Shown: positions 33,851 to 60,568, counted from the first letter of the stretch. The stretch: DNA of 64,000 bases from an uncultured archaeon (GCA_964430885.1 CAYSHM010000006.1:32001-96000); one strand, 5' to 3'. Made by a program: numbers and translations. Notes: generated by a model from the letters alone, not told the origin.

Positions 33851-33869
33851 GGCGAATTGGAATTACCTT

Positions 33870-38282: not shown

Positions 38283-38476
38283 GATCTCACCTTCGGTTCT
38301 ATGGCTTTGGTATCTGCCTATTAGATTTATGCTATTTATTAATATAACACGCCAATATTGGCCCAATTCACTCTATAGTAATAAAACCCATTAGAATCCC
38401 TTAAAACAGCTTAACAGAGTTTGGTTCAGGATACTTGTAACAAAAATTATTATTATCATAATTCGAATAGTATGAT

Positions 38477-42994: not shown

Positions 42995-43169
42995 GTAAGG
43001 TTAATTGATTCTTATATATGTTGATCCAAAACAATCGGCATATATTGACGGCATAGAATATCGTCTGAACGGTGCGTTGGTTTGAGTCATTTGTTTTATA
43101 AGGGGAAAGTTTTATATTCTTGTCGCAATATCCATTTTTAATCCTTCAGTGTAGATTCGGGTGATGTAA

Positions 43170-46100
43170 ATGTCAGAAATAAATCTCAAAGGTATTATTC
43201 TGTCTGTTTTTGTGATGTTATTGTTCATATTTGGTTCATTTCAGATGATAGATCTGGAAAGTGATAAGTGTTCAAGCAGAGTTCAATTTAGGAGCGGAGC
43301 TTCTGAATCAGTTAATGAATATATGGTTATTGAACCGGAATATCTCAAAATGACAAGGGGCAATCTCGTGAACGGAGTTGGTTCCTGGAGCTATGAGGTT
43401 GTAAATGACGGTCCTGATGTGGGCTATGATATCTCACTGGCCAGAGGGAATGACGGAAGCATTCACATCTGCTACCACGACGATCCCATTGACCGTATGG
43501 CATATATGAAATGGGAGTCAGGCACCTGGGAAAGAACGCTCCTGGATTACAATATCGTTAAGAACTATGGATCCAGTATAGATCTGGATTCCCATGGCAA
43601 CCCAGGAATGACATATTCGGCAATAGGTGAATTGATATATGTCAGTCTTGTAGGCGGAGATTTTGTCAACCAGACAGTAGATTTTGAGACTGGAGGGTAT
43701 GTGGGAGTGTATTCTTCCCTGAAATACGATTCCAGTAATGACCCGCATATAAGCTATCAGGATGCTTCGCCCGGATTCTTTGATCTGATGTATGCCTATA
43801 ATACGGCGGATACCTGGTATGTTGAGATAGTTGATGACGAAGGAACCAACGGCAAGTTCACCTCATTGGATCTGGATAACAACGGGAAACCCCATATCGC
43901 CTACCAGAAGACGGAAGGATTCGAGCTGAGATATGCTGACAAAACAGGTGCGGCTTGGGATACGGAAACCATAGAGGCGGGTGAAGCGTCCTATGGGTGG
44001 CATAACTCGATAGCGGTAGATTCTAACGGGAGACCTCATATCGCCTATTACGAGAATACCAACGGAATTCTGAAATATGCCCGCTGGACCGGTTCTCAGT
44101 GGTCCATTGAACAGGTGGACCCTGCGGAATATGCAGGTAGTTACCCATCACTTGTTCTGGATGATTCCAACAATCCTCATATCTGCTATTACAGCTCCCG
44201 CTGGAACTCCGATAACGGCCGGTTGAAATATGCCCATAAGACTGGTCAGGGATGGACATTGGAATTTCTGCATAATTCCACTGCCATGGGAAAACATCCT
44301 TCTTTAGTGCTTGATGATGATGAGAGGCCTGTTGTGGCATATACCGATGCTGGTCAGGATGCACTCCGATTATTGAGATGGGATGATGAGGCCCCATCAG
44401 CAAATGCAGGTACGGATATTGTGACCCTCCAGGGAGTGAATACAGATTTTAATGGGTCCGGATCAAGGGACAATTACGGTATTTCCAGCTACGATTGGAC
44501 TTTTGAATACAACGGCTACATGAAATATCTCACCGGAAAGACGCCCTACTACAAGTTCAATGATGTGGGGGTTTACACCATAACCCTCAATGTTACGGAT
44601 AATGCAGGCAACTGGGATCAGGTTGTCTTCAATGTTACCGTTAATGATAATGAGCGACCTTACGCAGATGCCGGTGGCCCTTACAACGGCCCCCAGAACG
44701 AAGCAGTTTATTTCAACGGCAATGTATCATATGATAATGTGGGCATAGACAGCTATACCTGGACATTGGACTACCAGGGAGCTGAAGAGGAGCTGTTTGG
44801 GATAGATCCCTATTTTGTGTTCGGAGAAGCAGGTCAATACAACATTTCTCTCAATGTAACGGATTCAGCTGGGTTTTGGGATACTGACGCTGCTACAGTG
44901 ACCATATGGGATTCTGAGAATCCGGTGGCAGTTGCTGGGAATGACCGGACAATTGATCAAGGTGAAGGAATAACGTTTGATGGGCTTTCCAGCACTGATA
45001 ATACGGAGATAACCGGTTATGAGTGGACCATATTCCTTGAAGGCATGGTAGTAGAGGTTTTCGGAGGAGCTACCCCCAAGTATGTTTTCAATAATGCCGG
45101 GGAATATGTGGTTTCTTTGAATGTTTCTGATTCCACCGGCAACTGGGATATTGATTCCATTACCGTGACGGTTCTGGATACCACCGACCCCACGGTTCAG
45201 GGCGAGGTTCCGGATTCGGTTCCTCAGGGGACCAGGGTGCTATTGAACGCTACGGCTAGTTCAGACAACGTGGGTATTGTGAAGTATAAATGGACCTTCA
45301 ATTACAATGGTATCTCCATGTCACTGAACACTGCTTTAGCCGAATTCACCTTTGAGATAATAGGTCTGTATGATATTGTTTTGAAAGTTGAGGATGCCGA
45401 GGGTAATTATGATACCCTGCATTTTTCATTGAACGTAACAGATACGATGTCCCCTGCAGTAGAGATCACTAGTGCCAGTCCAAAGGAGGTTAATGGCTCT
45501 CTCTATGTTTTCGATGCATCGGGCAGTTCAGATAATATGGATATTGTTCAGTATATCTGGAAGTTCAAAGACAGGGGAAATGATGTCACACTAACTGGAG
45601 ATGTTGTGGAGTATAATTTTACCAAGGGCGGAAAATACAATATCAGTCTCAGAGTATTGGATGCAGCTGGAAATGAGAACGTTTCATTTGTTGTCATATC
45701 TTACGGGAAGGTTTCCCAGGGTGATGACGATTCTTCGTCGGATGACGATTCATCCGATGATGATGATTCAGTTTCGGGAGATAAGGGCAGTGGTGATGAT
45801 GGACCAAATTGGCTCTTGATAATAATATTATTAATGCTGGCAGCCATTATTATAGGTGTCGGAATAGTGGTAGCGGTTTATATGGTGAAGAAGAATAAAG
45901 AGGAGAAGGATGAACCGGATGATGATAGGGTAGAGGGTATTGAAGAAGCCTCTCAACCCCAATCACCCCAGGAGCTCTACGCCCAGCTTTATGGTTCTTC
46001 ACCTCCCAGGGGTCCGGGAGATTACGGAAATGAAGGAGTAGTACCTGGCCACTCAGGACCTCCTCCGGCAGAACGAAGGTCTCCTACTGCCGAACAAGCT

Positions 46101-46241
46101 AAGCAAAAAGCGGTTCAGCAAAAAGCAGCCGCGGAACCTGGAACTCCGCAGCAAAACCCGAATGCCGAAAAAATCGCTCCTGGTAAACCCCGATCACCTC
46201 AGGTTCCCGGCAGCAGTCCGCCTCGACCACCGAAACAATAG
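43170..46241 (+). CDS. Surface protein: beta-propeller, PKD repeats, TM anchor and Pro-rich tail
   Basis: Repeated SL.LD....PHI.Y...LKYA blades; five S.DN..I..Y.W PKD units; WLLIIILLMLAA TM. Confidence 0.82.
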   Translation: MSEINLKGIILSVFVMLLFIFGSFQMIDLESDKCSSRVQFRSGASESVNEYMVIEPEYLKMTRGNLVNGVGSWSYEVVNDGPDVGYDISLARGNDGSIHICYHDDPIDRMAYMKWESGTWERTLLDYNIVKNYGSSIDLDSHGNPGMTYSAIGELIYVSLVGGDFVNQTVDFETGGYVGVYSSLKYDSSNDPHISYQDASPGFFDLMYAYNTADTWYVEIVDDEGTNGKFTSLDLDNNGKPHIAYQKTEGFELRYADKTGAAWDTETIEAGEASYGWHNSIAVDSNGRPHIAYYENTNGILKYARWTGSQWSIEQVDPAEYAGSYPSLVLDDSNNPHICYYSSRWNSDNGRLKYAHKTGQGWTLEFLHNSTAMGKHPSLVLDDDERPVVAYTDAGQDALRLLRWDDEAPSANAGTDIVTLQGVNTDFNGSGSRDNYGISSYDWTFEYNGYMKYLTGKTPYYKFNDVGVYTITLNVTDNAGNWDQVVFNVTVNDNERPYADAGGPYNGPQNEAVYFNGNVSYDNVGIDSYTWTLDYQGAEEELFGIDPYFVFGEAGQYNISLNVTDSAGFWDTDAATVTIWDSENPVAVAGNDRTIDQGEGITFDGLSSTDNTEITGYEWTIFLEGMVVEVFGGATPKYVFNNAGEYVVSLNVSDSTGNWDIDSITVTVLDTTDPTVQGEVPDSVPQGTRVLLNATASSDNVGIVKYKWTFNYNGISMSLNTALAEFTFEIIGLYDIVLKVEDAEGNYDTLHFSLNVTDTMSPAVEITSASPKEVNGSLYVFDASGSSDNMDIVQYIWKFKDRGNDVTLTGDVVEYNFTKGGKYNISLRVLDAAGNENVSFVVISYGKVSQGDDDSSSDDDSSDDDDSVSGDKGSGDDGPNWLLIIILLMLAAIIIGVGIVVAVYMVKKNKEEKDEPDDDRVEGIEEASQPQSPQELYAQLYGSSPPRGPGDYGNEGVVPGHSGPPPAERRSPTAEQAKQKAVQQKAAAEPGTPQQNPNAEKIAPGKPRSPQVPGSSPPRPPKQ

Positions 46242-46498
46242 CTGCTCCTTATCAATTTTAATGGTTTATTCTTCCCTAAATTCATAGTGCATAGAATGAA
46301 ATTTATTAGGAAGCGAATAAATTATATGTCCTTAAAAGGTAATGTCTTTCTATGAAATTTATCATTTGGTCTAGATGAAATGCATCCTTTATTCCATGCC
46401 CTCCAGGTTATTGAAATCAACATGATTTTATTTTCCCTGAAAATGGGTCCTATTTACTAATGGATCAGCAGTGTATGGAATGCTCATGCAGAATAGCA

Positions 46499-46516
46499 TA
46501 AAAAGTAATAAATAAA
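46499..46516 (+). promoter_or_regulatory. Possible archaeal BRE/TATA promoter of the BMC operon
   Basis: TAAAAAGTAATAAATAAA about 80 nt upstream of the first BMC gene, which has an AGGAGG SD; the region is AT-rich so the call is weak. Confidence 0.3.
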
Positions 46517-46593
46517 AGAGCTGGCCATTGGGGCTTTATTACAATTTCAGGTTAAATGGATTGTAGCGTATTATTATAGGAGGTTGAAGGACT

Positions 46594-47223
46594 TTGTCAG
46601 AAGGATTACAGTTGAGGACATTTATATTCATCGATCAGATGCAGCCGCAATTTGCAGCATATCAGGCTACTGTCGGGAGAGGTTATCTGCCAGTATCAGG
46701 TATGGCTGCAATATATATTGAAACTGCACCCGGAATGCCCATCAATCGGGTTACGGATCTGGCATTGAAATATACAAGTGTGAGACCGGCAGAACTAATA
46801 GTGGAGCGAGCTTTTGGAATGTTGGAATTCCATCATGAATCCCAGTCCGAGGTCAGAACAGCGGGAAAAGCCGTTCTAGATGGCCTAGGTTTGGAGGAGA
46901 TGGACAGATATAAACCAAAGGTTGTGACCAATGAGATAATCAAGAAAATAGATGATTACCAGTCAATGATAATCAATCGTTCCTGGAGGGGTATGATGAT
47001 CCTTCATGATCATTCTCTCTTCATTATGGAGACTCAGCCTGCCGCTTATATAACCTATGCCGCAAACGAGGCCGAAAAGGCAGCAGATATCAATATTGTC
47101 GGCATCAGGGCAGCCGGTGCCTTTGGCAGGCTGTACATCAGCGGTTGGGAATCCGATGTCAGGGCCGCAGCGGATGCCGCTACGACGGCCATAGAGGGTA
47201 TTGACGGTAGGGATGATTGGTAG
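46594..47223 (+). CDS. BMC shell trimer, BMC-T (CcmP/CsoS1D-like, stacked-trimer type)
   Basis: LRTFIFIDQMQPQFA, ETAPG..I..VTDLALK, VERAFGMLEFH, ANEAEKAA, GAFGRLYISG. Confidence 0.93.
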   Translation: MSEGLQLRTFIFIDQMQPQFAAYQATVGRGYLPVSGMAAIYIETAPGMPINRVTDLALKYTSVRPAELIVERAFGMLEFHHESQSEVRTAGKAVLDGLGLEEMDRYKPKVVTNEIIKKIDDYQSMIINRSWRGMMILHDHSLFIMETQPAAYITYAANEAEKAADINIVGIRAAGAFGRLYISGWESDVRAAADAATTAIEGIDGRDDW

Positions 47224-47245
47224 TTCCGCCGACCTAGGTGTCTTT

Positions 47246-47992
47246 ATGGATCCCGACCGTCTCAGGACCATCGTTCTGGAGCAGGTACGGAGATATTTTC
47301 AGAACGAGGGAATGGAGTTCATTCGATATGAAAAGGATTCCGAAGAAGGATCTAAAGGTATATTGATAGTGATAAACCGAACTGATCCATCAATGGACCT
47401 TTTATTCAGCCAGATAAACAATCTGGTATCTGCTGGTCATAACATCACATTGATGAGCACCTCCGAAGTGAGGGCAATATTGGGCCAGCAGGGCTATTGG
47501 TCACTTGACCGGATCACCTACTTGTCTATTGATGATACCCGAAAGGTCAACATGAAAATTGACGAATATTGGTCCCTGCTATTTCCGGTTATAGGTTACT
47601 CCCTGGCCGGAGAGATATCAGCCTTAAAAGATACAAATCCATTGGCGGATTTGGCTTTGACGGCCCTGCGCAGTGGATTGGATGTCGGAGTGGCAGTGGA
47701 TACCCTTGAGACTGTAGGGAAGAAGGCTCGTAGGCCAAAGCTGATCTCCGAGTCCACCAGGATACAGAAGGGCTTATCGGGAATAGGCGTGAGATTGGTA
47801 ACCCTGGAAAATATGGTCAACGAGATGTCCTTTGACAAACGGAGGTTCACAGGCCGAGTGCTGACAGAGGATATAATAAACAGCTATATGTCCCGTGGCG
47901 TGTTCGATATCAATGTGGATGAAGATACTGTGATCACGCCTTTGGCAAGGGAAAGGGCAAGGGAGTTGAACATTCGAATAAATATCATTTAG
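47246..47992 (+). CDS. BMC-associated protein: encapsulation-peptide-like N-terminus, flavoprotein-like middle, C-terminal ITPLAR domain
   Basis: MDPDRLRTIVLEQVRRYF; VLTEDII...DTVITPLARERARELNI; located inside the BMC operon. Confidence 0.6.
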   Translation: MDPDRLRTIVLEQVRRYFQNEGMEFIRYEKDSEEGSKGILIVINRTDPSMDLLFSQINNLVSAGHNITLMSTSEVRAILGQQGYWSLDRITYLSIDDTRKVNMKIDEYWSLLFPVIGYSLAGEISALKDTNPLADLALTALRSGLDVGVAVDTLETVGKKARRPKLISESTRIQKGLSGIGVRLVTLENMVNEMSFDKRRFTGRVLTEDIINSYMSRGVFDINVDEDTVITPLARERARELNIRINII

Positions 47993-48040
47993 AAATTGAA
48001 TTAATAGGATCAGATATCATAGATCAAGGAGTGTAAGAAA

Positions 48041-48334
48041 ATGAAATTGTGCAGAGTGGTAGGAAATGTGGTAGCCACTGTCAAGGACCGAAACATCGAG
48101 TCCTTCAAGCTGATGATAGTACAACCGGTGGATTTCAAGGAACAGAAGCCCTATGGAGAGCCTCTAGTGGCAATAGATGCGGTTGGTGCCGGCCAAGATG
48201 AGCTGGTCCTGATAGTTCAGGGAAGTTCCGGCAGAATGACCGCTATAACTGACCAGAAACCGTCCGACTGTACGATAATGGCAATTGTGGATTTTGTGAC
48301 CTTAAACGGTGAACAGACCTTTGCAAAACGGTGA
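48041..48334 (+). CDS. BMC vertex pentamer BMC-P (EutN/CcmL family) #1
   Basis: M.LCRVVGNVVATVKD, VAIDAVGAG..ELVLIVQGSSGR, D..IMAIVD. Confidence 0.96.
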   Translation: MKLCRVVGNVVATVKDRNIESFKLMIVQPVDFKEQKPYGEPLVAIDAVGAGQDELVLIVQGSSGRMTAITDQKPSDCTIMAIVDFVTLNGEQTFAKR

Positions 48335-48352
48335 TCGAGGGAGGTTTTAATA

Positions 48353-49783
48353 ATGGAGATCAGGCAGGATCAGATAAATAATATTGTGGATGAGATAGTT
48401 AGAAGAGTGGAGCTGGATATGAGCTATGGGAAACCGAACATGGGGCCAGCCAAGCAGGGAGGCACTACAGGTATCTACAGCACTATTGACGAGTGTATTG
48501 AGAAGGCGAAGAAGGCAAGAAAGTTTTTGATGTCAATGTCATTGGATCAAAGGCAGAAGCTGATAGATGCCATGAAAGGGGAGATATTGCAGAACGCAGA
48601 TCCTCTGGCCAAGCTTGCTGTTGAGGAGACTGGATTGGGTCGGTACAAGGACAAGGTGAATAAGAACATTCTGGCTGCGACAAAGACCCCTGGATGCGAG
48701 GACCTGCAGACTGAAGCCCAGACGGGCGACGACGGTCTCACACTGTACGAGATGGGGCCCTTTGGAATTATAGCTTCCATAACACCTACTACCAATCCCA
48801 CGTCAACGATCACATGCAACTCCATCGGCATGATCGCTGCTGGAAACGCTGTTGTGTTCAATCCCCATCCGAGGGCTACCAAGACCAGTCTGGAGACCAT
48901 AAGACTGCTGAACCGGGGTATTCAGTCGGCAGGAGGTCCTACTGATCTTATAACAACGGTTAAAAAACCAACAATTGACACAAGCCAGGCTCTTATGAAC
49001 CATAAGGAGGTCAATCTACTCTGCGTAACCGGCGGTGAAGGAGTGGTGCATTACGGTCTTACCAGAGGGAAAAAATGCATTGCAGCAGGTCCGGGAAATC
49101 CTCCTGTTTTCGTGGACGATACCGCTGATCTGATACGGGCGGGCAGGGATATTGTGGACGGAGCCAGTTTTGACAACAATATCCTCTGTATAGCTGAAAA
49201 AGAGGTTCTGGTATTCGAAAATGTGGCAGATAGGCTAATCTCTGAGATGAGGAAACACGGTGCACATCTGGTCAGCGGAAAGGAGATAGACCGGCTGATA
49301 GATTTGGTATTCAATGATCCCTCGGGAGAGATCCCCCTGGTGAACACCAAATGGGTGGGTCAGGATGCAGGTAAGATACTGCGGAACATAGGAATAACCG
49401 ATAAGTTCAATGCGCGATTGATCCTTGCCGAGGTTCCTCACGATCATCCATTCGTGCTGGCTGAAATGCTAATGCCAATACTGCCCATAGTTAGGGTGAA
49501 ATCCATAGATGAGGCCCTTAAAATTGGTCTGAGAGCCGAACATAGATTCAGACATACCGCAGCTATGCATTCCACAAATGTGGACAATATGACCAAGGTG
49601 GGACGGGCAATGGAAACCACAATATTCGTTAAGAACGCTCCATCCTATGCAGGTCTGGGTTTTGGAGGTGAGGGATACTGCTCCCTTACAATAGCCGGAC
49701 CAACCGGTGAAGGAGTTACAAGGGCGAGGAATTTTGCCAGATTGAGAAGATGTACGCTCAAGGATTCATTCAGAATTGTGTGA
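48353..49783 (+). CDS. CoA-acylating aldehyde dehydrogenase (EutE/PduP-like) with N-terminal encapsulation peptide
   Basis: ETGLG, PTTNPTST, VTGG, AGPGNPP, SFDNNILCIAEKE, EMLMP, TIAGPTGEG. Confidence 0.95.
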   Translation: MEIRQDQINNIVDEIVRRVELDMSYGKPNMGPAKQGGTTGIYSTIDECIEKAKKARKFLMSMSLDQRQKLIDAMKGEILQNADPLAKLAVEETGLGRYKDKVNKNILAATKTPGCEDLQTEAQTGDDGLTLYEMGPFGIIASITPTTNPTSTITCNSIGMIAAGNAVVFNPHPRATKTSLETIRLLNRGIQSAGGPTDLITTVKKPTIDTSQALMNHKEVNLLCVTGGEGVVHYGLTRGKKCIAAGPGNPPVFVDDTADLIRAGRDIVDGASFDNNILCIAEKEVLVFENVADRLISEMRKHGAHLVSGKEIDRLIDLVFNDPSGEIPLVNTKWVGQDAGKILRNIGITDKFNARLILAEVPHDHPFVLAEMLMPILPIVRVKSIDEALKIGLRAEHRFRHTAAMHSTNVDNMTKVGRAMETTIFVKNAPSYAGLGFGGEGYCSLTIAGPTGEGVTRARNFARLRRCTLKDSFRIV

Positions 49784-49830
49784 ATAATAATCGATAATAA
49801 ATATTTCAGTCCAGCAGATCAGGTGAAAAA

Positions 49831-51192
49831 ATGGCTTCATTGGGAACGGATATGGTAAGGAACTCGGGGATAATAGGTGCGGGTGGTGCAGGTTTTCCTA
49901 CCCATGTCAAGCTGGCAGCTAAGGTTGATTGTGTAATAGCCAATGGTGCCGAATGTGAACCCCTTCTCAAGGCGGATAAGCAGCTCATGGAGCATTTCCC
50001 TGAAAAAATACTGGATGGTATGAAAGCAGCCATGGATATGACGGGAGCCCAGAAAGGTATAATAGCTCTAAAGAGAAAGTATGCGGATGCGGTGTCCTCC
50101 TTCAGAACTCGATTGGCGGATGCTGTGAACGGTAGATATGAAGGAATATCCATATTTGAACTTGAGAACTTCTATCCTGCAGGCGACGAACAGGTCATGG
50201 TCTATGAAGTGTTAGGACGGGTAATTCCCGAAGGCGCCATACCATTGTCAGCAGGTGTTGTTGTGGACAATGTGGGGACCCTGGCCCAAATATCGGAAGC
50301 CATTGAAGGAAAAAATGTTACCCATCGGTGGGTAACGGTCACTGGTGAAGTGGCCTACCCAAAGACCCTTTACATCCCTATAGGTACTTCTATAGAAAAG
50401 ATGCTTGGATTGTGCGGGGGTCCGACAATAACCAATTACAGGATATTATCCGGAGGTCCCATGATGGGACGTCTAGTAAACCTTACCGATAGTGTTCTGA
50501 AAACCACCTCGGGTATCATAGTTTTCCCGGCAGATCATTATGTTGTGAAGGCTAAAACCCGCCCGGTGGAAGTGAATGTTAGGTATACTTTAGCGGCATG
50601 CATTCAGTGCAAAATGTGCACTGATGTATGTCCCAGATTCAATCTGGGTAAGTATGTATGTCCGGACAGTGTGATGAAAGGCATCGCTTACGGAATACTT
50701 TCAAAACCGGAGGATATGACCACCGCATTCCTCTGCGTTGAGTGCGGATTATGCACCCATTACGGATGCCCTATGGGTTTGGACCCCTGCGGTATGATGG
50801 GGAAGGTCAAATCCGAACTTATTTCCGAAGGTATGACGAACCCACATTCAAGGACGGATCTGTCTGCCAGGGAATACAGGCCTTTCAGAAAGGTTCCCCT
50901 AAAAAGATTGATGGCCAGGATGGATCTTTTGAGATATGATGTACCGGCACCCATGGAGCTGAAGGACCTATCGAAGGTTATTACAGAAGTGAATATCCCT
51001 CTTAAACAGCACATAGGCGCGCCTTCGAAACCTGTTGTGAAAGTGGGAGATCAAGTGAAGAAGGGTGAACTGATAGCAGATATTCCAAAAGGTTCTCTGG
51101 GGGCACGGTATCATTCCAGCATTAACGGTGAAGTAACAGGTGTGGATTCCTGCATCAGTATTAGAGCAAAGAAAATCGGAGGAATTGAATGA
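49831..51192 (+). CDS. pduS: PduS-like (RnfC family) flavin/Fe-S oxidoreductase
   Basis: GAGGAGFPTHVK, ANGAECEP, YPAGDE, GGPMMG, two CxxCxxC..CP motifs, C-terminal PLKQHIGAP. Confidence 0.9.
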   Translation: MASLGTDMVRNSGIIGAGGAGFPTHVKLAAKVDCVIANGAECEPLLKADKQLMEHFPEKILDGMKAAMDMTGAQKGIIALKRKYADAVSSFRTRLADAVNGRYEGISIFELENFYPAGDEQVMVYEVLGRVIPEGAIPLSAGVVVDNVGTLAQISEAIEGKNVTHRWVTVTGEVAYPKTLYIPIGTSIEKMLGLCGGPTITNYRILSGGPMMGRLVNLTDSVLKTTSGIIVFPADHYVVKAKTRPVEVNVRYTLAACIQCKMCTDVCPRFNLGKYVCPDSVMKGIAYGILSKPEDMTTAFLCVECGLCTHYGCPMGLDPCGMMGKVKSELISEGMTNPHSRTDLSAREYRPFRKVPLKRLMARMDLLRYDVPAPMELKDLSKVITEVNIPLKQHIGAPSKPVVKVGDQVKKGELIADIPKGSLGARYHSSINGEVTGVDSCISIRAKKIGGIE

Positions 51193-51746
51193 GAGAGTCT
51201 ATAGGTCTCATGGAGTTCAACAGCATTGCAAAGGGTATTGAGGTGACGGATGTTCTTCTGAAGGCTTCCGAGGTGGAACTCATATTCTCATCGCCGGTGT
51301 GTCCTGGAAAGTATCTGATAATGATCTCTGGTGAGGTGGAGGCTGTTAAGAATTCACTGGGAAAAGGAGCCGACATATCGGATGGTTTCCTCATCGATCA
51401 AAGTGTAATACCTCAGGTTCATGAAAAGGTGTTCCCAGCCATAGCTGGGACCACACTGCCCGAGGTGATGGGGGCCATTGGTGTCATAGACTGCTATTCT
51501 TCGGTTTCGGCAGTAGTGGCAGCCGATAAAGCGGTGAAATCCGCCGATGTAGATCTGCTGGAGATTCGATTGGCCAGGGCGTTGGGAGGAAAGGCCTTTG
51601 TCATAATAACAGGTGAGGTTGCCGATGTGAGGGCAGGTGTCGATAACGGAGTTGAGTCCATAAAGGAACACGGACTGCTGCTGGGCACAGTGGTAATTCC
51701 GTCCCCCCACCAGGACCTACTGGAAACGTTGATAGGATCGAGATGA
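51189..51746 (+). CDS. pduT: BMC shell trimer, PduT-like (Fe-S binding BMC-T)
   Basis: IGLMEFNSIAKG, VCPGKY with Cys38, second domain AADKAVKSA..RLARALGGK..IPSPH; directly follows pduS. Confidence 0.92.
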   Translation: MRESIGLMEFNSIAKGIEVTDVLLKASEVELIFSSPVCPGKYLIMISGEVEAVKNSLGKGADISDGFLIDQSVIPQVHEKVFPAIAGTTLPEVMGAIGVIDCYSSVSAVVAADKAVKSADVDLLEIRLARALGGKAFVIITGEVADVRAGVDNGVESIKEHGLLLGTVVIPSPHQDLLETLIGSR

Positions 51747-51843
51747 TCAGATCATAAATTCATATCACGATTAATTAAATTAATTAATTGATGAATAATT
51801 TGAAGAATATAATCAAGAAGATGAAAAATAGAAGTTGATTGAA

Positions 51844-52350
51844 ATGAGAATTTGCAGGGTAATAGGCAATCTGGTATCCACATGCAAGATACCTGATCAC
51901 GAAGGTTTCAAGATACTGGCGGTTCGTGCTGTCGATCTTCACGGCAGAATGCATGGTGAGACCTTTCAGGCTATAGATTGCGCCCAGGCAGGTGTGGGTG
52001 ATTTTGTGCTCGTGATAGAGGAAGGAGGCTCCTGCAGTCAGGTGATGAGCGGAGTTAAGTCGCTAACCCCCAAGGGTGACCGGGTGGCAGTCAACAAGTC
52101 CATTCTTGCTGTTGTGGATTATATTGAGGCTGATGGAGAGCTCAGAAGGCTGGAGCAGACAGCAGAGATGGAAGAGGATGGAGGAAAGAAAAAATTAAGA
52201 AGTACCAAGGTTAAAAGAAAGACCTCCAAGGCTACTGGAAAAAAGGGTAAAGAAAAAAAAAGTGAAAAAACGTCAGGAAAAAATTCCCGCAAACCTGCTA
52301 AAACCTTGGCAACAAAGAAAGGCAAGGGCGGTAAGAAGAAGAAGGGTTGA
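51844..52350 (+). CDS. BMC-P (EutN/CcmL) #2 with a Lys-rich C-terminal extension
   Basis: MRICRVIGNLVSTCK, AIDCAQAGVGDFVLVIEEGGS, ILAVVD, then a 56-aa basic tail. Confidence 0.92.
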   Translation: MRICRVIGNLVSTCKIPDHEGFKILAVRAVDLHGRMHGETFQAIDCAQAGVGDFVLVIEEGGSCSQVMSGVKSLTPKGDRVAVNKSILAVVDYIEADGELRRLEQTAEMEEDGGKKKLRSTKVKRKTSKATGKKGKEKKSEKTSGKNSRKPAKTLATKKGKGGKKKKG

Positions 52351-52356
52351 TAGATT

Positions 52357-53271
52357 ATGTCAGAAGACGAGCTCAGAAAGTTAGTAGAAAACATGGTTCG
52401 ATCCATGCTGGAATCCGGTTCTGTGGAGATACAGAAGGGAACTGCTCTAAGGACCCAGGGAGATATCTCAAGGCCTACCAACAATTATTTTAATGATCAG
52501 ATGGAGGGTAATGCCCGGTATGTGGTTGCAGCCAATTGGAAGATGAACATGACCACCATAGAGGCCAAGGAATTCGCTATGCAGATAAGGGCCTTAGGAG
52601 AGGAAATTTCCAATAGTAAAAGGGATGCAGTGGTCTGTCCTCCTATTTATTTGGCTCCTCTTCTGAAAACAGCGTTCATGGGGACGGGTATCCGGTTGGG
52701 CGGTCAGAATATGCACCATGAGACCAAGGGTGCTTATACCAGCGAGATATCGCCTCTAATGCTTAAGGATGCGGGTTGTCAATATGTGATAATTGGACAT
52801 TCTGAAAGGAGACATATATTTGGTGAAAAGGACCATCATATCAATATGAAGGTGAGGTCAGCTTTCAATCATGGCCTTGTACCTCTTTTCTGCGTTGGCG
52901 AGACCGAGAAGGAACGGGAGAGCAATGCTACCTTCAGGGTTGTCAGGAAACAATTGAAATTGGGCCTCTATAAGACAAGCTCCAAGCAATCCGGCAGGCT
53001 GATAATCGGTTATGAACCGGTTTGGGCAATAGGCACTGGGAGAAATGCTACTCCGGCTGACGCCCAAAGGGTACATGCATTCATCAGGGAGGTTCTGACG
53101 GAGATCTACGATTTCCCCACGGCCAAGAATATCAGGATTCTCTACGGCGGAAGCGTTACACCTGATAATGCTTCAGGTCTTATAGCCAAAAAAGATATCG
53201 ACGGTTTCCTGGTGGGGGGTGCTTCTCTCACCGCTTCCAAGTTTATGAGCATAGCGGAGGTGTGCAAATGA
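52357..53271 (+). CDS. tpiA: Triosephosphate isomerase, bacterial type, with N-terminal encapsulation-peptide extension
   Basis: ANWKMN, IGHSERR, YEPVWAIGTG, YGGSV, DGFLVGGASL. Confidence 0.95.
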   Translation: MSEDELRKLVENMVRSMLESGSVEIQKGTALRTQGDISRPTNNYFNDQMEGNARYVVAANWKMNMTTIEAKEFAMQIRALGEEISNSKRDAVVCPPIYLAPLLKTAFMGTGIRLGGQNMHHETKGAYTSEISPLMLKDAGCQYVIIGHSERRHIFGEKDHHINMKVRSAFNHGLVPLFCVGETEKERESNATFRVVRKQLKLGLYKTSSKQSGRLIIGYEPVWAIGTGRNATPADAQRVHAFIREVLTEIYDFPTAKNIRILYGGSVTPDNASGLIAKKDIDGFLVGGASLTASKFMSIAEVCK

Positions 53272-53747
53272 GCCAGGATATGAGGAAGATATTGATAGGT
53301 AGTGATCACGGGGGATTTGAGTTAAAGGAGATTATTAGACAGTTCCTCAAGGACCAGGGATACCGGGTTGTTGATTTTGGTTGCTATTCGCCGGACCCTG
53401 TTGACTATCCAGATATTGCCTTTTTGGTCTCTCAGGGGGTGTGTTCGAATCCTAATTCAATTGGTATAATGATAGATGGGGTAGGTGTTGCCAGTACAAT
53501 GGTTGCAAACAAGATTCCCGGGATCAGGGCCGCCCTTTGCTGGAATCAGTTCAGCGCACACAATGCACGTGAGCACAACAATGCAAATATGCTCGTCCTA
53601 GGGGGTAGGGTAATCGGTGATATATTGGCCAGGAGCATTGTGAAGGAATTCCTGGAAACAGAATTTGCCGGCGGACGGCACGCACGGAGGGTAGACAAGA
53701 TAATGGCGATTGAAGCCAAATATCTGAGGTCTATTCAGGAAAAATGA
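53268..53747 (+). CDS. rpiB: Ribose-5-phosphate isomerase B family
   Basis: GSDHGG..LK, VDYPD, ANKIPGIRAA, AREHNNANML.LG, FAGGRHARRV. Confidence 0.92.
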   Translation: MSQDMRKILIGSDHGGFELKEIIRQFLKDQGYRVVDFGCYSPDPVDYPDIAFLVSQGVCSNPNSIGIMIDGVGVASTMVANKIPGIRAALCWNQFSAHNAREHNNANMLVLGGRVIGDILARSIVKEFLETEFAGGRHARRVDKIMAIEAKYLRSIQEK

Positions 53748-53849
53748 GTTAAAAGTTAACAGAGTTAGGATAAATTTATTAGTTCAGTGTAATAATAATA
53801 TAAAACTTAATAATATAGAGTTGAGAGACGAATCTTGAGGAGTGAACCA

Positions 53850-54137
53850 ATGTATATCGGTAAAGTAATGGGAACCGTGGTGGCCACAAGGAAGATAGAT
53901 ACCCTTAAAGGGATCAAACTGCTCCTAATACAGCCCTTGGATGATGATATGAAACCCTCGGGAAGGTTACTGGTGGCCGGGGATGCCCAGGGAGATACAG
54001 GAGAAGGTGATGTGGTATATTTGGTCACCAAGAAGGAAGCCTGTTTCCCCTTCGGTGGTCTGACCCCCCTTGATCACGCTGTGGCGGGTTATATTGATGA
54101 TTATCATATTGAAGAATCTTTAAAAGAGGGGAAATAA
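53850..54137 (+). CDS. BMC-P (EutN/CcmL) #3
   Basis: MYIGKVMGTVVATRK...KLLLIQP, VAGD...GEGDVV....KEA, PLDHAVAGYID. Confidence 0.93.
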   Translation: MYIGKVMGTVVATRKIDTLKGIKLLLIQPLDDDMKPSGRLLVAGDAQGDTGEGDVVYLVTKKEACFPFGGLTPLDHAVAGYIDDYHIEESLKEGK

Positions 54138-54442
54138 GCATAACATGGACACTGCGGACAACCATCCAAGGCTCTATTTACCTGGAAGAAATATTTGGAC
54201 AGTAAATAATAATATAGGAATAAGGTAAGATTAGTGTGTTAATTTAATCCTGTTACCAGGATGTGAATTCATAATAGTATTGGATAGGGCATGGGTATGA
54301 GTAAAGGTAAAAAGCAATAGATGAAAAATTCGAAATCAGCTATTGAAATGTATAATCAATCAAAAATTATTGAGAAGTAGTAGTCAAGGATTATTACAAT
54401 GGAGATACATTGAATCCAAAACAAATCAAGGAGGAAAAATAA

Positions 54443-54736
54443 ATGAGAGATCTACAGAAAATTGCATTGGGAATGATTGAGACAAAGGGAGAGATAGGAG
54501 CTATAGAAGCTGCAGATGCCATGGTAAAGGCAGCCAAAGTGACCCTTATCGGAAAGGATTTCGTCGGCGGCGGCTATGTGTGCGTTATGGTCAGGGGAGA
54601 GGTTGGGGCTGTCAAGGCGGCAATAGACGCCGGTGGAGCCGCTGCAGCCAGGGTCGGAGAGCTTGTCTCAGTTCACGTTATTCCCAGGCCCCACGAGGAA
54701 GTAGAGGATGTTCTGCCTTCCATTGATAGGGATTAA
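54443..54736 (+). CDS. BMC shell hexamer BMC-H (PduA/EutM/CcmK family)
   Basis: [45 protein letters not shown]. Confidence 0.98.
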
Positions 54737-55067
54737 AGTAATACTGCATTAAATTGTTATTTGCAGGGATGGGCTGAAATATTCGCCTGCTCCCTTAGAG
54801 AACAGGATTTGCATTTGGAGATTTATCCTCAAAATAATAATGATATTCTTTTAGGAAGATCATCTGAATGTTTTATCCTGCAATTTACTCAATAGGATTA
54901 AATCGAATTGATATCTATGGTGATCATGAAAGCAAAGGCCATATGTCAATTACTTCCAGATTGAAATGCGGGTAGTATTGTTACCTTTGATATCAAGATC
55001 CGGGATATGGAATGTATGGCCTAAACACCACGAAAAAATTCAAGAATAGTGATAATGAAGTGATACA

Positions 55068-56507
55068 ATGGAAAGGGAGGAAGCGATCAAAAGGATAACC
55101 GAAGAGGTTCTTGCAAGAATTAGGGGCGCATCTTCGGGTAATTCTTTGAATACCTCACAGGGATCTGCCGCGGATCAATCCGAAAAGGGACGGAGTGCAC
55201 CTTATTTAGCCTCTGGGGGAAAATCCATTATTATGATACTCAGCGGAGACCGGACTATTGAGGATCTGAGAGAGGACATCAGTTCCATATGCAGTAGCCA
55301 GAAGGTTGAAATGATAGTGGTATCCGATTGGGCTCTTAGGTCCTTCAACATCTTTAAACTCAAGGGTTTAGCTCCTGGGATAAAACTGCTCCAGGAGGGG
55401 GACATATTGGGCAGCAAGACAATATCAGACATCTTATCAGACGTTGACTCGGTCTATGTTCTCGACCTGGATATTCCCAGTGCTTCGCGTATTGCAGATT
55501 TTGCTCCAGTGCTGCCTGCTGAAAGGGTTATCACAGGGGCAATTATTTCCGGTAAAAGCGTTATCTGTTCACATGCACTTCTGAGCCCAATGGCAGGGGA
55601 GCTAACTCCTCCATGCGCCCGTGAGGCCATTTCCGCAGTTGAGAAGAAGCTCGTGGCCGTCGGTGTTGCCATGCTTGGTTCGGGGACTTCTTTCAGTGAT
55701 AATGAAGCAGTGGAACAGGCCCTAGCCCGCTGCCCGGCGGGTGAAGGAGAATGTATTGGATGCGGATTGTGCGTGAACCTGAACACAGCAGGCGTGGAGA
55801 ACATCTTTTCAGCCGGAGCCCAGAGGATTAGTACGGCTACCGGATTGGATACCCCCAATCCAGATATGGCTCGTATGATAGATCACACGCTGCTGAAACC
55901 CGCTGCCACAGAGGATGATATCCGGGAGCTATGTGATGAGGCTAGAAGATACAATTTCGCTACGGTATGTGTTAATCCATCCCATGTAGCCCTTGCAGCA
56001 AGGGAGCTGAGAGGAACGGATGTTGGTATCACCACTGTCATCGGTTTCCCCCTGGGAGCAACAACCCATACCGCAAAGTCCATTGAGACCCGGGATGCAA
56101 TAGCCAATGGCGCCAATGAGATAGATATGGTGGTTAACGTTGGCGCTCTGAAGGCTGGCAACGATGATCTGGTAAAAAGGGATATTGCGTCAGTGGTGAA
56201 CGCTGCAGGCAATGATGCTATTGTCAAGGTGATTCTTGAGACCTCTCTGCTGAATGACGAGGAGAAGGTCAGGGGCTGCCTGCTCTCAAAGATGGCCGGG
56301 GCGGATTATGTGAAGACATCCACTGGTTTTGGTCCTGGCGGCGCTACCGTAGAGGATATCCGCTTAATGAGGCAGACTGTGGGCCCAGATATGGGGGTTA
56401 AGGCCTCTGGAGGGATCAGAAATACAGACGATGCCAATGCCATGCTTGAAGCAGGTGCTTCAAGGATAGGTGCTAGTGCTTCAGTTGCCATTGTTAAGGG
56501 CGCATGA
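55068..56507 (+). CDS. deoC: Deoxyribose-phosphate aldolase fused to an N-terminal encapsulation peptide, an extra domain and a Cys cluster
   Basis: C-terminal ~215 aa: [40 protein letters not shown]; N-terminal ~265 aa extension with CIGCGLC. Confidence 0.93.
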
Positions 56508-56620
56508 GCCAAGGATCTCTTAAATATCCATTCCAGGTATACTAACTACCAAATGGAAGTCGCCTAGTTGCATGAAACTAGTGCAAGCTGTAGTAAATAA
56601 TGCATGAAGGGATTGGATAA

Positions 56621-58480
56621 ATGAATGAAAAAGACCTCCAAAGGGACGATGGTCCCGCTACAGGGAATACCATGGAAAATGAAGAGGAGTTTTCATACAC
56701 TTCCGGTGAAATAACCGGCAAATCTCCCATGGAGCAAACTCTGGATCAAGGTCTTCAATTTCTCGAATACCTCCAAAAGCGGAAGGAAACATACAGGGCG
56801 GTCAAACTATATTTTCATAATGACATGGACGGTTTTGCTTCCTCACTTCTTGTGAACCATCTCCTGACAAAGATCGGTTATGAAATTCCTCTGGAGAACA
56901 TACACCCCTTGGCTCATGTCAACCTGAATAATGTGGCAATAGATGAACAGCATCTATTTTTCTTTGTAGATATACGGCCCCCTAGCTCAGCTTTCAAAGA
57001 ATCAAGTCTGGCGGGAGAGGATAGACCTTTCATGGAAAATGTTTTCTGTGTGGATCATCACACAACCCTGGATTCACCCCTTTCACCCCATGCGAATTTC
57101 TTTCTTTACAACTATGAGATCGATGATATTCTTCCATCCACTGCCACCTTCCTGATGTATTATCTTGTAATGCTTGAGAAAGGGATCAGGGGAACCTACG
57201 GTGCCCTCATGAGGGAATGGATGACGAACCCCCCCATGAACACAAGATATCTTCTGCTACAGGCCACCATTGCTGATCATCTTCATCTTCTGTCGGAAAA
57301 GCTACCCAATAATCCCCTGAGGTATCTATCCAACCTGCTTATTGAGGATATGGATGCCTATGTGCTCCTATCAATAACCACCTCACTGCTGCTGGGAGGG
57401 GACGGCGGACATATGGATATGTTCAGGCAACTATATTCCGAAGCCCTGGGGAATATCAATCAGGAATTAATGGCCCAGAAATTAGAGAACAATCTTTCTC
57501 AGGTACTTTCGCTTTTTGAATTCGTGGATATTCTCATGAAGAAGCGTAAGGAATTCATCGATGATATGGCCAAGGATATGGATGGGGAGATCCAGAGAAC
57601 AGAAGCTGGGATCAGCGGAATGACGGATACCCTGAATAACTATAACACCGCAGCCGATAAGATCAAGGAGGAACTCTCATTCCAGAATATAGCTATGGGG
57701 AAACTGAAGGATCTTCGAAATGATTACATGGGTATCAGGGAGCAGATGACGCGTTTAGAGAACCAGATAGGTATTGAGTTGGGAAGGCTTGAAAAACAGA
57801 AAGTTCTCAGATACCATCTTGTGGCTGAAGGAGACATCAATTTATCAGTTTTCCTGCCACCCCAGAACAATGATCAGGTTAGAGGCATACTGTCATCACT
57901 TCTATTTTATCACGGTAATAACAACATCATCATAGAGGAGAAGACATCCAAGGCCGTGTGGAGTTCAAGGGGTTATGAGGGAAAGGAATTGGAAAGCTTC
58001 CTGACAACAGTATCGGTGGACATGGAGAAATTGATGGAACTGAAGGAACATCAGGAGGCGGTGGAGGAATTTAAGGGAGATCCAACCATAATTGAGAAGC
58101 TTGAATTGGATGAGAGGTCCCCTCCTTTGATATCTGTGGAGAACCGATATATCGGACAGATGGGTGGCAGGAGTAGGATATTCGGCGGTATCATTACCAG
58201 CAATGTCACCCTTGATGCTAGCACTTTGGTTCAAGACAGAGGAGGTAATGAACTACAGTCCATACTTACGGTTCCTCACCAGCGGTTCTGGATATCAACT
58301 ATACAAGCAATAAAGGAAAAATTCAAGGAGAGCCAGTGGTTCACAGTACAGGTGGAAGGGGGTGCAAGCTTGGGCGAGATACTCTCAGACCAGTGGGAGC
58401 TGCTGCTGATGCATTTCATGGGCAATAGGATGTCATACAGGATTTTTGAACTGAAAAGCAATGGTCAAGATGGCATCTGA
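56621..58480 (+). CDS. DHH-superfamily phosphoesterase-like protein with a coiled-coil insertion
   Basis: YFHNDMDG (motif I), FVD (II), VDHH (III), IAD (IV); central heptad-rich helix. Confidence 0.6.
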   Translation: MNEKDLQRDDGPATGNTMENEEEFSYTSGEITGKSPMEQTLDQGLQFLEYLQKRKETYRAVKLYFHNDMDGFASSLLVNHLLTKIGYEIPLENIHPLAHVNLNNVAIDEQHLFFFVDIRPPSSAFKESSLAGEDRPFMENVFCVDHHTTLDSPLSPHANFFLYNYEIDDILPSTATFLMYYLVMLEKGIRGTYGALMREWMTNPPMNTRYLLLQATIADHLHLLSEKLPNNPLRYLSNLLIEDMDAYVLLSITTSLLLGGDGGHMDMFRQLYSEALGNINQELMAQKLENNLSQVLSLFEFVDILMKKRKEFIDDMAKDMDGEIQRTEAGISGMTDTLNNYNTAADKIKEELSFQNIAMGKLKDLRNDYMGIREQMTRLENQIGIELGRLEKQKVLRYHLVAEGDINLSVFLPPQNNDQVRGILSSLLFYHGNNNIIIEEKTSKAVWSSRGYEGKELESFLTTVSVDMEKLMELKEHQEAVEEFKGDPTIIEKLELDERSPPLISVENRYIGQMGGRSRIFGGIITSNVTLDASTLVQDRGGNELQSILTVPHQRFWISTIQAIKEKFKESQWFTVQVEGGASLGEILSDQWELLLMHFMGNRMSYRIFELKSNGQDGI

Positions 58481-58741
58481 TTTTCTGCACCTGAAATATG
58501 ATCACTTCACTTCGATAGCCTATCATCCAATGATATATTCCAATGAAAAATTTTAAAAATGATACACCTTTTCCACTTACAGAACCGAATAGGAGTTTTT
58601 TCGGGGATAATATGAACTAAAAAATGTTATACTTGGTGTAACATAAACATGGATTCATAGTGTATTGGTTTGATCAATCAAAGTGCTAAGGGGATTGAAT
58701 TGATCTTGGTGATCTCCCGAGGAGATACAAGAGGTGGATAG

Positions 58742-59629
58742 ATGAACATTGAGAACAAGTTATGGTTTGGAATCATAGTAGGTGCAGTTGTTTTGCTGAT
58801 AGTTTCAGTTATTCTTTATGCTACATTCAAAGAGGAAAACGTTGAGGAAGGAAAGACCTCCATTCCTGTAATTCTAGAGGGTTATGAGATAGAGTACAAA
58901 TATACGGTCCGAATCGGCGGACCTAACGGACCGGTATATGATTCCAATATGGACAATATCATAAACTCATCTCTGGTTGAGAAAACGGTTTTCTATAATA
59001 ACTATGCTCAATGGCCGGAACGTTTCATAGTTGGTGAGCACCCGGCCGATGCGGAATTACCTTCCTTCAGCGATCATTTCATTGGACATGAGGAAGGGGA
59101 CCATTTCAATTTCGTTCTTTCGGGGGTGAGCCGTCTAGAATATAACGACAGTAAAAGGGTGGAAATACCTGTGAAGGAGAAGATACCTCTCTATGAGACA
59201 GTGAACAAAGAGCAGTTCAAATCATCGTTAGGAGCTGTGGATTTGAAGGTTGGTATGATATATAATCATGGTTTTTGGGGATGGGAAATTGAGATTTTTG
59301 AATTTATCGACGAGAATAATATGACAATTTATCACAGACCTGAGATAGGTTACGAAATAGATGTTCTTCCCTGGTCTTCCGAAGTGAAGGATGTATCATC
59401 TGAAACGGGTTTCATAACTCTGAATCATGATCTGACAGATAAAGATCTTCTAAAGGGCCAGTTCTACCCCTTTGAATACACGGATTATTCTGACCATTTT
59501 GATAATATGAACAATCCGGGTTACATCCAACAGCTTGGTCCGAATTATATAGTGATCGAGTTCAATGATGAACGCGCAGGTGCGGATATTTATTTTGATA
59601 TAGAGATAGTGAGGATTCTGAATTCCTGA
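58742..59629 (+). CDS. Membrane-anchored FKBP/SlyD-like protein (divergent)
   Basis: N-terminal TM; YTVRI...VYDS, F...FIG.E.G, IEFN..RAG..IYFDIEIV. Confidence 0.55.
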   Translation: MNIENKLWFGIIVGAVVLLIVSVILYATFKEENVEEGKTSIPVILEGYEIEYKYTVRIGGPNGPVYDSNMDNIINSSLVEKTVFYNNYAQWPERFIVGEHPADAELPSFSDHFIGHEEGDHFNFVLSGVSRLEYNDSKRVEIPVKEKIPLYETVNKEQFKSSLGAVDLKVGMIYNHGFWGWEIEIFEFIDENNMTIYHRPEIGYEIDVLPWSSEVKDVSSETGFITLNHDLTDKDLLKGQFYPFEYTDYSDHFDNMNNPGYIQQLGPNYIVIEFNDERAGADIYFDIEIVRILNS

Positions 59630-59641
59630 TGAGGTGATGTA

Positions 59642-60568
59642 ATGGCAAGGAAAAGAAGCGTGGACGGATCAAAAAGAGGAAAACACGGCGGAGACGCATC
59701 CATGTTCGATGATATCGATGAGTACAGTATAAGGGAAGAGGTGAGGGGTTCGGTCATGAAGGAGTCATCCCGCAGAAAAGCCTTAATGCCTTATGTGGTT
59801 CTGGTACTTGTAATATTAGCAATAATAGGAGGGTATTTTGCCTACATGTATCTTATAAAGGAAGACAAGGATACACCTGCTTCTGATTTCAATGAGGATA
59901 ATTCCTTCATTGCAGATGTGGAGATAAAGGTAGAGACCAAGACCGATGGTGATGGAAGCCACAGCCCTTTTGATTACAGTATGCACAAGGTTGATCCTTC
60001 TAGGGGAACCCAATACCTGCTTTTGATCAAGAACAAGGGTGAAGAAAAGGATTCTTTCCGATTGACTGCGGACAATCCCAGCGGTTGGTCAGTCACCTTC
60101 GAAGGTGGTAATGTCATGACGGACATGTCCCCGGGGTACTGGGATTACAAGATAATGACCATAAAGGTGACTGATTCAAGTGATTCCTATAGGGACATAA
60201 AGATTACAGCTACTTCATTATCAGACCCGTTAGTAAAGGACAGTATTATCACCAAGAACACAGTGGAATCTCTTCCTCCTGGCGAAGCAGATCTGAACAA
60301 TGATCCGGCTAAGGTAGATTACAATTTGGTATATTACGGCGGAGGAACTTCCGGGGAGAAGGGCTGGTATCATAATCAGGGTAGCGAGTTCGAGGCCACA
60401 AATGTTATTCAGGGGTTCAAGGAGGCCATCAAGGGAATGAGAGTAGGCCAGACCAAAGTAATAGAGGTTCCACCTGAAAAGGGATATGGTCCGGATGATG
60501 AGAAGCATGTTGGCGGCCGTCCCCTGGTCTTCGAGATCACAATGCTGGATGTCAACACCAATAATTAG
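59642..60568 (+). CDS. Membrane-anchored Ig-like plus FKBP-type peptidyl-prolyl isomerase
   Basis: TM segment; VIQGFKEAIKGMRVGQTK.IEVPPEKGYG...LVFEITML. Confidence 0.8.
   Translation: MARKRSVDGSKRGKHGGDASMFDDIDEYSIREEVRGSVMKESSRRKALMPYVVLVLVILAIIGGYFAYMYLIKEDKDTPASDFNEDNSFIADVEIKVETKTDGDGSHSPFDYSMHKVDPSRGTQYLLLIKNKGEEKDSFRLTADNPSGWSVTFEGGNVMTDMSPGYWDYKIMTIKVTDSSDSYRDIKITATSLSDPLVKDSIITKNTVESLPPGEADLNNDPAKVDYNLVYYGGGTSGEKGWYHNQGSEFEATNVIQGFKEAIKGMRVGQTKVIEVPPEKGYGPDDEKHVGGRPLVFEITMLDVNTNN

Follow-up and report, generated by a model that had tools for sequence, protein, structure and literature searches.

A probable sugar-phosphate-utilisation microcompartment operon at a conserved chromosomal site in marine archaea

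Does a complete set of genes for a protein-shelled metabolic organelle, of the kind called a bacterial microcompartment (BMC), really belong to an archaeal chromosome, and what would the organelle do there? We examined this question in a stretch of 64,000 nucleotides from an uncultured archaeon (GCA_964430885.1, CAYSHM010000006.1:32001-96000; hereafter the window), where positions 46594-56507 hold 12 uninterrupted open reading frames (ORFs) on the + strand. An earlier note, made from the sequence alone, had read them as 12 intact genes of a sugar-phosphate-utilisation (SPU) metabolosome in an archaeal chromosome. The ORFs were recovered in the order given there, and 11 out of the 12 matched the expected Pfam family at E <= 0.001, with NCBIfam models alongside; the exception was the accessory protein. 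We conclude that the locus is very probably a genuine, chromosomally fixed and vertically inherited SPU operon of a marine archaeon of the JASLWR01 order, labelled Thermoplasmatota. The earlier note's view of a complete SPU-type locus acquired by an archaeon is thereby retained, to the extent that sequence can tell. Its statement that no archaeal microcompartment had been characterised is outdated: a preprint (PMC12747264, 18 November 2025; cited throughout, like PMC11585597 below, from its accessible part) found SPU-type 'archaeal microcompartments' (AMCs) in 66 of 111 Hodarchaeales genomes; a further carrier that it names is the JASLWR01 order, with an extra BMC-T (Tdp), one BMC-H and no phosphotransacylase of the PTAC type. 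Archaeal microcompartments in this order are thus already known from that source.

The window corresponds to positions 32001-96000 of a 150.6-kb contig (C6) in a genome of 3.13 Mb and 44 contigs (G000; 91.6% complete, 1.4% contamination). Most of the archaeal genes that had been noticed on the same contig were matched, and those detected comprise class I LysRS, a RIO/Bud32-like kinase, L15, SecY (Sec61 plug), ABCE1, NFACT, L44e, S27e and aIF2-alpha. We compared the locus with two separate assemblies, G001 and G002, which represent two other genera of the same family. All 12 genes were found collinear by tblastn in both (contig C119 of G001, which is JASLWR010000064.1, L021; contig C50 of G002, L101), and in all three genomes the block DHH/o58742/FKBP/L44e/S27e/aIF2-alpha lies directly 3' of the locus. 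Protein identities to G001 and G002 were alike for the locus (31-87%) and the flank (34-83%). The conserved insertion site in three genera implies that the operon was acquired before the family diversified and then descended vertically. No empty insertion site could be defined: around the DHH gene of six class genomes that belong to other families, FKBP, L44e, S27e and aIF2-alpha were not retained in any.

Both borders of the locus (about 46300 and 56550), where the earlier note had advised looking for breaks, were bridged by single contigs: in two marine metagenome runs, the Logan assembly contains one contig (34.9 kb in one run, 51.9 kb in the other) that spans positions 43000-60000 with 0 differences. 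In a third run of the same study, flank and locus were covered evenly at ~3x, with pieces across 46090-46818; parts of the locus left uncovered in runs X3 and X4 carry no evidential weight. Ranked against 291 genome windows of 10 kb, the locus stands at the 89th percentile for GC content (46.6%, against 43.5 +/- 2.6% for the genome) and at the 77th for tetranucleotide distance. A contig scan matched at least 597 stretches, from which 79 bacterial loci were kept; no Hodarchaeales record was among the matches listed, and absences from that listing carry no weight. Among those matches, SPU-like bacterial loci reached 43-60% identity per protein. The near-identical bacterial locus that would have pointed to a chimera was sought and did not appear among the matches listed or in the sampled phylum of G401 (the genome behind L092, titled Myxococcota), where the top bacterial PduS was 48% identical (L025; G584/G696).

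The host belongs to the same family as the metagenome-assembled genome (MAG) JASLWR01 (G001), whose contig JASLWR010000064.1, titled 'MAG: Thermoplasmatota archaeon isolate ETNP2_MAG_1', was the top match among the matches listed. The BMC domain PF00936 was present in all four genomes of the order, in 5 of 37 of the class and, in an even sample of the phylum, in 5 of 401. An Asgard host was considered and rejected: no actin-family match was found in G000, and BMC domains were restricted to those 5 of the 401 sampled genomes of the phylum. The genome G003 (same family, and same genus as G001) showed only satellite shell genes; it was also without the DHH gene, which has homologues in 36 of the 37 class genomes, so the absence of the locus there is probably an assembly gap and not a loss. 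Separately, an incomplete SPU locus was found in G005, a genome of 5.5 Mb and 980 contigs from another family of the class, where it is spread over contigs only 6.2-13 kb long (C258, C305 and C56; L102, L012 and L107). Its PduS is 47% identical to that of the window and groups away from the window's clade, and this partial locus may be mis-binned.

Table 1. Genes of the microcompartment locus and its immediate neighbours (positions counted from the first nucleotide of the window).
Feature	Position	Strand	Family matches and remarks
BMC-T, double-stacking (CcmP/Tdp-like), 209 aa	46594..47223	+	NCBIfam CcmP; Pfam BMC
Accessory protein, 248 aa from M16	47246..47992	+	flavoprotein-like fold; matched by neither Pfam nor NCBIfam
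BMC-P1 (pentamer, vertex), 97 aa	48041..48334	+	PF03319 (EutN_CcmL), 96 bits
Acylating (CoA-dependent) aldehyde dehydrogenase (AldDH), 476 aa	48353..49783	+	NCBIfam PRK15398; PF00171 (Aldedh)
PduS-type flavin/Fe-S NADH dehydrogenase ('MNdh'), 453 aa	49831..51192	+	Complex1_51K, SLBB, Fer4_17, RnfC_N
PduT-like single-layer BMC-T, 185 aa	51189..51746	+	two BMC domains, 146.6 bits
BMC-P2, 171 aa	51835..52350	+	PF03319 at residues 4-95, 52 bits
Bacterial-type triose-phosphate isomerase (TPI), 304 aa	52357..53271	+	PF00121, 296 bits, residues 56-302; TIGR00419
RpiB-like protein, 161 aa	53262..53747	+	PF02502 (LacAB_rpiB), 182 bits; NCBIfam rpiB
BMC-P3, 100 aa	53835..54137	+	PF03319, 65.6 bits
BMC-H (hexamer, facet), 97 aa	54443..54736	+	PF00936, 93.2 bits
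DeoC fusion, 479 aa	55068..56507	+	TIGR00126; Pfam DeoC at residues 270-469 only
DHH-family protein	56621-58480	+	weak archaeal RecJ similarity; 114 bp 3' of DeoC in all three genera
Surface proteins 5' of the locus	28736-46241		beta-helix/NosD/PKD 1120 aa; PPC+Big_7+caspase-domain 774 aa; FG-GAP/Big_7 1505 aa; PKD x5 1023 aa

All three shell classes are present, as had been claimed: one BMC-H, two BMC-T and three BMC-P genes. The protein encoded by gene 1 matched the CcmP model (256 bits, below the equivalog cut-off of 340), and its Pfam BMC match was weak (32.7 bits, residues 144-200); because the CcmP model was matched over the whole length, we assigned it to the double-stacking BMC-T type. 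For the PduT-like BMC-T, the top NCBIfam match was eut_PduT (145 bits, below the cut-off of 250), and its translation contains the motif CPGK, the Fe-S site of BMC-T (PMC12747264). Identity to the orthologues of G001 and G002 was high for gene 1 (79-80%), BMC-P1 (78-79%) and BMC-H (84-87%). The BMC-H is single-copy in the locus; that of G002 has retained a second one, between PduT and BMC-P2, and therefore 'loss of one H' is not order-wide. BMC-P2 consists of a EutN domain and a tail of 66 aa rich in lysine and arginine (K/R; 26 K+R against 7 D+E), which has no counterpart in the orthologues of G001 (120 aa) and G002 (118 aa). By analogy with the K/R-rich tail of the Hodarchaeales BMC-P2, which binds DNA/RNA (PMC12747264), this tail probably tethers nucleic acid at the vertices.

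Apart from the locus, we observed a satellite trio of shell genes on the - strand of another contig (G000:C26:44223-46000; L109:16223-18000), ~0.5 kb from the contig end: they encode proteins of 91 aa (BMC-P), 178 aa (BMC domain) and 259 aa (BMC domain with a C-terminal extension). The trio adjoins an M24 peptidase both in G000 and in G003, where it lies at L103:8863-10571 (G003:C1) and its extended BMC protein (225 aa) carries a DeoR-type helix-turn-helix (HTH); counterparts were found on G001:C73 and G002:C53. This BMC-HTH fusion presumably recalls EutK. A further 341-aa protein (G000:C3:172678-173703; L108:9679-10704; + strand) has an N-terminal BMC domain (39 bits) and a weak HTH (DeoR, RepL, HTH_11), with no other shell gene nearby.

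Among the enzymes, AldDH scored 655 bits on PRK15398 (cut-off 403) and starts with an amphipathic helix that resembles an encapsulation peptide. TPI has an N-terminal extension of ~55 aa which also opens with an amphipathic helix; together with those of the DeoC fusion and the accessory protein, these N-terminal helices are likely encapsulation signals. The locus TPI reached only 34 bits on the archaeal-type TPI model and is of bacterial type; a separate archaeal-type TPI is encoded in the same genome (C2:124434-125096, 287 bits). The gene labelled RpiB belongs to the PF02502 family, but the label probably does not extend to catalysis: compared with the 3he8 and 1o1x chains, the protein has iDGVG in place of iCGTG (Cys to Asp, Thr to Val). 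In all SPU ribose-5-phosphate isomerases (RPIs) an Asp replaces Cys66 of the E. coli enzyme, and the single one assayed was nearly inactive (PMC11585597). Judging from these residues, isomerase activity of the RpiB-like protein is improbable.

The last gene is an aldolase, as named earlier (TIGR00126, 287 bits against a cut-off of 117), but not a plain DeoC. It encodes a fusion with an amphipathic helix at residues 3-20, a flavoprotein-like domain of ~200 aa, located at ~50-200, the motif C229-x2-C232-x2-C235 and the DeoC part at 267-476. The three cysteines were invariant across six long-form DeoC sequences, two of them bacterial (L052 and L076). The AlphaFold2 (AF2) model of the fusion was moderate, with a pLDDT of 70 for the whole chain and of 73-87 within the N-domain (residues 51-170).

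Gene 2, to which only the generic label of accessory protein had been given, is present with a longest ORF of 263 aa from 47201, while the database gene call starts at M16 (47246; P0121, 248 aa). It combines an N-terminal amphipathic helix, a fold like that of UbiX or phosphopantothenoylcysteine (PPC) decarboxylase flavoproteins, and, at the C-terminus, a small domain in which a TPLA motif is conserved. Neither Pfam nor NCBIfam had a matching family, and a PDB sequence search with its profile gave nothing at E < 0.1. Its AF2 model (pLDDT 86) was compared with the PDB by Foldseek: the nearest structural matches were UbiX, PPC-decarboxylase and EpiD flavoproteins, with UbiX 7km2 at the top (E 3e-6; TM score 0.46 when scaled to the query length, 0.60 when scaled to that of the target). 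Homologues are rare: an exhaustive search of 1.84 billion proteins gave 24 representatives at E <= 0.001, and k-mer searches recovered 3 proteins with the accessory protein as query and, with the DeoC N-domain, nothing but the query itself. Identity to the G001 and G002 counterparts was only 31-32%. By BLASTP the accessory protein did not match the N-domain of DeoC; the profile comparison by hhalign joined the two with 99.2% probability (E 1e-19, 187 columns). On these profiles, the product of gene 2 has a flavoprotein fold and is paralogous to that N-domain.

We compared the locus with the described systems. With the AMC of the JASLWR01 order it shows no essential difference from what PMC12747264 reports: the taxon is the same, an order of 4 genomes with JASLWR010000064.1 (G001) in the window's family, and so is the composition (extra BMC-T Tdp, one BMC-H, three BMC-P, no PTAC, SPU enzymes). 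A full-text literature search for accounts of JASLWR01 or archaeal microcompartments gave none besides that preprint. In Hodarchaeales, shells from one operon have been assembled in vitro and in E. coli, the deoxyribose-phosphate aldolase (DERA, the DeoC activity) is fused to a flavoprotein domain, and PduS with a CPGK-bearing BMC-T forms an electron relay (PMC12747264). The window's locus shares with the Hodarchaeales type II AMC the SPU enzymes with TPI, the PduS and CPGK-PduT relay, the flavoprotein-DeoC fusion, the K/R tail of BMC-P2 and the encapsulation helices. It differs from it in the phylum of the host, in its single BMC-H, of which the Hodarchaeales system has two or three, and in the extra BMC-T (Tdp); PTAC was not found in the locus or in G000, there is no citrate synthase or class II aldolase among the locus genes, and PduS is only 50-54% identical.

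Bacterial SPU loci have as their signature enzyme an N-terminally extended DERA, and DERA associates with RPI in a complex; they often include PduS and TPI, and PTAC is encoded by only some metabolosome loci (PMC11585597). Here too, an extended DERA stands beside genes for BMC-H, BMC-P and BMC-T, and the RPI has Asp for the catalytic Cys; AldDH, PduS and a TPI with an N-terminal encapsulation peptide are likewise shared with SPU1-7, while the shell set of one BMC-H, one BMC-T (Tdp) and three BMC-P is shared with SPU6 (PMC11585597). Of the metabolosome core, the aldehyde-generating enzyme and the acylating AldDH both scored above their cut-offs, and no phosphotransacylase was found in G000 as assembled. 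The differences are the archaeal host and the N-extension of DeoC, a flavoprotein-like domain of ~260 aa here against ~70 aa in the bacterial loci. Of the 79 bacterial loci kept from the matches listed, 11 bear a DERA, and in 2 of these a long-form DeoC was found.

Read through its homologues, the SPU compartments of bacteria and the Hodarchaeales AMC, the organelle probably burns DNA-derived deoxyribose phosphate. Nucleoside phosphorylases, of which four (PNP_UDP_1) were found in G000, and a mutase would supply deoxyribose-5-phosphate, which would enter the shell and be split by the DeoC fusion into glyceraldehyde-3-phosphate and acetaldehyde. AldDH would convert the trapped acetaldehyde into acetyl-CoA and NADH; electrons would then pass from PduS to the Fe-S PduT trimer and leave through the shell, with regeneration of NAD+. 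The bacterial-type TPI would interconvert glyceraldehyde-3-phosphate and dihydroxyacetone phosphate, the Cys-less RpiB-like protein would serve as a partner of DeoC and not as an isomerase, and the K/R tail of BMC-P2 would bind nucleic acid. PTAC (PF06130), Pta (PF01515) and acetate kinase (PF00871) had no match in G000 as assembled, and therefore acetyl-CoA probably leaves the shell for a cytosolic synthetase. An ADP-forming acetyl-CoA synthetase would then probably yield acetate and ATP; two ORFs of ~710 aa in G000 contain ATP-grasp_5, a domain of such enzymes.

The bacterial character of this gene set raises the question of its origin. BMC loci are overwhelmingly bacterial, the locus TPI is of bacterial type, and G005 has its BMC genes solely on short contigs, as one might expect if a bacterial BMC fragment had been joined to an archaeal contig during assembly or binning. 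We rejected such a chimera, which is hardly conceivable given that the same locus lies beside the same archaeal genes in three genera assembled separately, that single contigs bridge both junctions in two runs and a third is even across both, and that the composition lies inside the genome's range; moreover, PduS is 60-64% identical within the family against 48% to the best bacterial one listed, and satellite shell genes sit on two more G000 contigs. The donor is a finer matter. PMC12747264 holds that the AMC was transferred from Myxococcota and argues for independent transfers into archaea; the operon might instead have come from, or been shared with, Hodarchaeales by transfer between archaea. 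We built trees of PduS only, by FastTree (202 rows) and by quick IQ-TREE runs (50 and 62 rows). In the FastTree tree the window's PduS fell in a clade of 14 rows (support 100) with G001, G002 and eleven metagenome clusters; its sister rows were P0013 and P0018 (95), the enclosing clade of 64 rows (97) held all rows labelled Hodarchaeales or Heimdall, and a Christensenellaceae-rich clade adjoined this enclosing clade (98). This grouping speaks for transfer between archaea, as do the 50-54% identity of Hodarchaeales-labelled PduS against at most 48% for bacterial ones (among the matches listed and the sampled phylum), the flavoprotein-DeoC fusion of both systems and the K/R tail of both, which in the window's family is confined to G000. 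Yet in the IQ-TREE runs the window clade (100) stood apart from the Hodarchaeales clades (97-100) without being nested in them, the two being joined with a support of only 84-86 in the Shimodaira-Hasegawa-like approximate likelihood ratio test (SH-aLRT); the closest outside rows were P0013 and P0018, the backbone was weak, and a long flavoprotein-DeoC also occurs in the bacterial loci L052 and L076. We thus regard transfer between archaea as unlikely, but as deserving serious attention. The PduS trees agree with the picture of PMC12747264, as far as its accessible part goes, and both one and two archaeal acquisitions fit. In the sampled phylum of G401, 20 of 401 genomes had PduS (40-48% identity), and two of its PduS rows were almost identical to Desulfovibrio desulfuricans L058 in the tree; from this, the phylum sampled is evidently either a different one or wider than Myxococcota.

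The function can also be read otherwise, as a real compartment with another job: it might handle another sugar phosphate or run the aldolase in the synthetic direction, with the flavoprotein-like domains, their Cys motif and the RpiB-like protein doing some unrecognised chemistry. Two flavoprotein-fold modules with a conserved CxxCxxC have no assigned role, the RpiB-like protein is without its catalytic Cys, CoA recycling was not found in G000, and the metabolic roles of SPU subtypes are unconfirmed according to their authors (PMC11585597). Against it stand the equivalog-level score of DeoC (287 bits against 117), the activity of a bacterial SPU DERA on deoxyribose-5-phosphate (PMC11585597), and the presence of AldDH, PduS and PduT, which suit acetaldehyde oxidation; we therefore find another job improbable. 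A bolder reading sees a second, non-Asgard archaeal lineage with a streamlined compartment that has no internal CoA recycling and exports acetyl-CoA to an ADP-forming synthetase, in which the Cys-motif flavoprotein pair (one free, one fused to DeoC) forms an undescribed redox or scaffold part and one genus evolved the K/R tail independently. We consider this combination rather unlikely as a whole; if true, the convergence would indicate that SPU organelles depend centrally on the capture of nucleic acid at the surface of their shell.

Several points weigh against the reading that we prefer, a vertically inherited SPU operon that consumes deoxyribose phosphate. The two runs that span the locus are not independent, because they are possibly the assembly's own source; G003 shows only satellite shell genes, which points to the assembly gap mentioned above; and the phylum label Thermoplasmatota rests on the submitter's title together with the statement in PMC12747264. 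Missing PTAC, Pta and AckA are no proof of absence in a genome that is 91.6% complete, and a locus with no CoA-recycling enzyme departs from the canonical metabolosome and leaves a gap in the model. Two other genera do without the K/R tail, which the system therefore does not require. Expression has a weak hint: a metatranscriptome run of the same study gave five short contigs on the window, 4 of the 5 inside the locus (among them 52159-52309 in BMC-P2, and 55167-55364 and 55616-55816 in the DeoC fusion), and carry-over of DNA is possible. Finally, the shell, its activity and its substrate are known in this lineage from genes alone, the assembly and DNA-binding experiments having used a Hodarchaeales operon.

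Within the locus, the genes are tightly packed except for two gaps beside BMC-H (305 and 331 bp), which contain no further small ORF of note. The spacer 5' of the locus (352 bp) is AT-rich and has GGAGG at its end, 8 nt before the TTG start of gene 1; there was no Rfam match within 44000-60000 of the window, and no tRNA or mobile-element gene abuts the locus. Many longest-ORF calls in the window start at TTG or GTG, and several starts are probably placed too far upstream, because the database call of the accessory protein begins 15 codons later, at an ATG. The DHH gene downstream is probably a housekeeping gene, and a link to DNA scavenging is therefore unsupported. Upstream lies a series of very large predicted surface proteins, a flank that was not shared by the 4.5 kb available upstream of the G002 locus. 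Two stretches of 18 bases (47360-47377 and 59588-59605) matched one short contig of higher depth in three runs (44-58x in X1 and X2; loose ends on both sides), which is probably a small repeat common to another organism or element.

Protein-shelled metabolic organelles were long seen as purely bacterial. The present findings leave the overall picture of PMC12747264 unchanged and add, beyond the accessible Results of that preprint, the conserved chromosomal site and synteny, the junction-spanning contigs and matching composition, the K/R tail of BMC-P2 in a single genus, the second BMC-H of G002, the satellite shell genes and the paralogy of the accessory protein and the DeoC N-domain. An operon fixed across genera of marine archaea labelled Thermoplasmatota backs the remark in PMC12747264 on organelles outside Asgard archaea. 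Its 12 genes make a compact archaeal SPU system that suits experiments on shell assembly, encapsulation peptides and electron export, and it offers three testable oddities: CoA recycling that was not found, duplicated flavoprotein-like modules and a lineage-specific basic tail.

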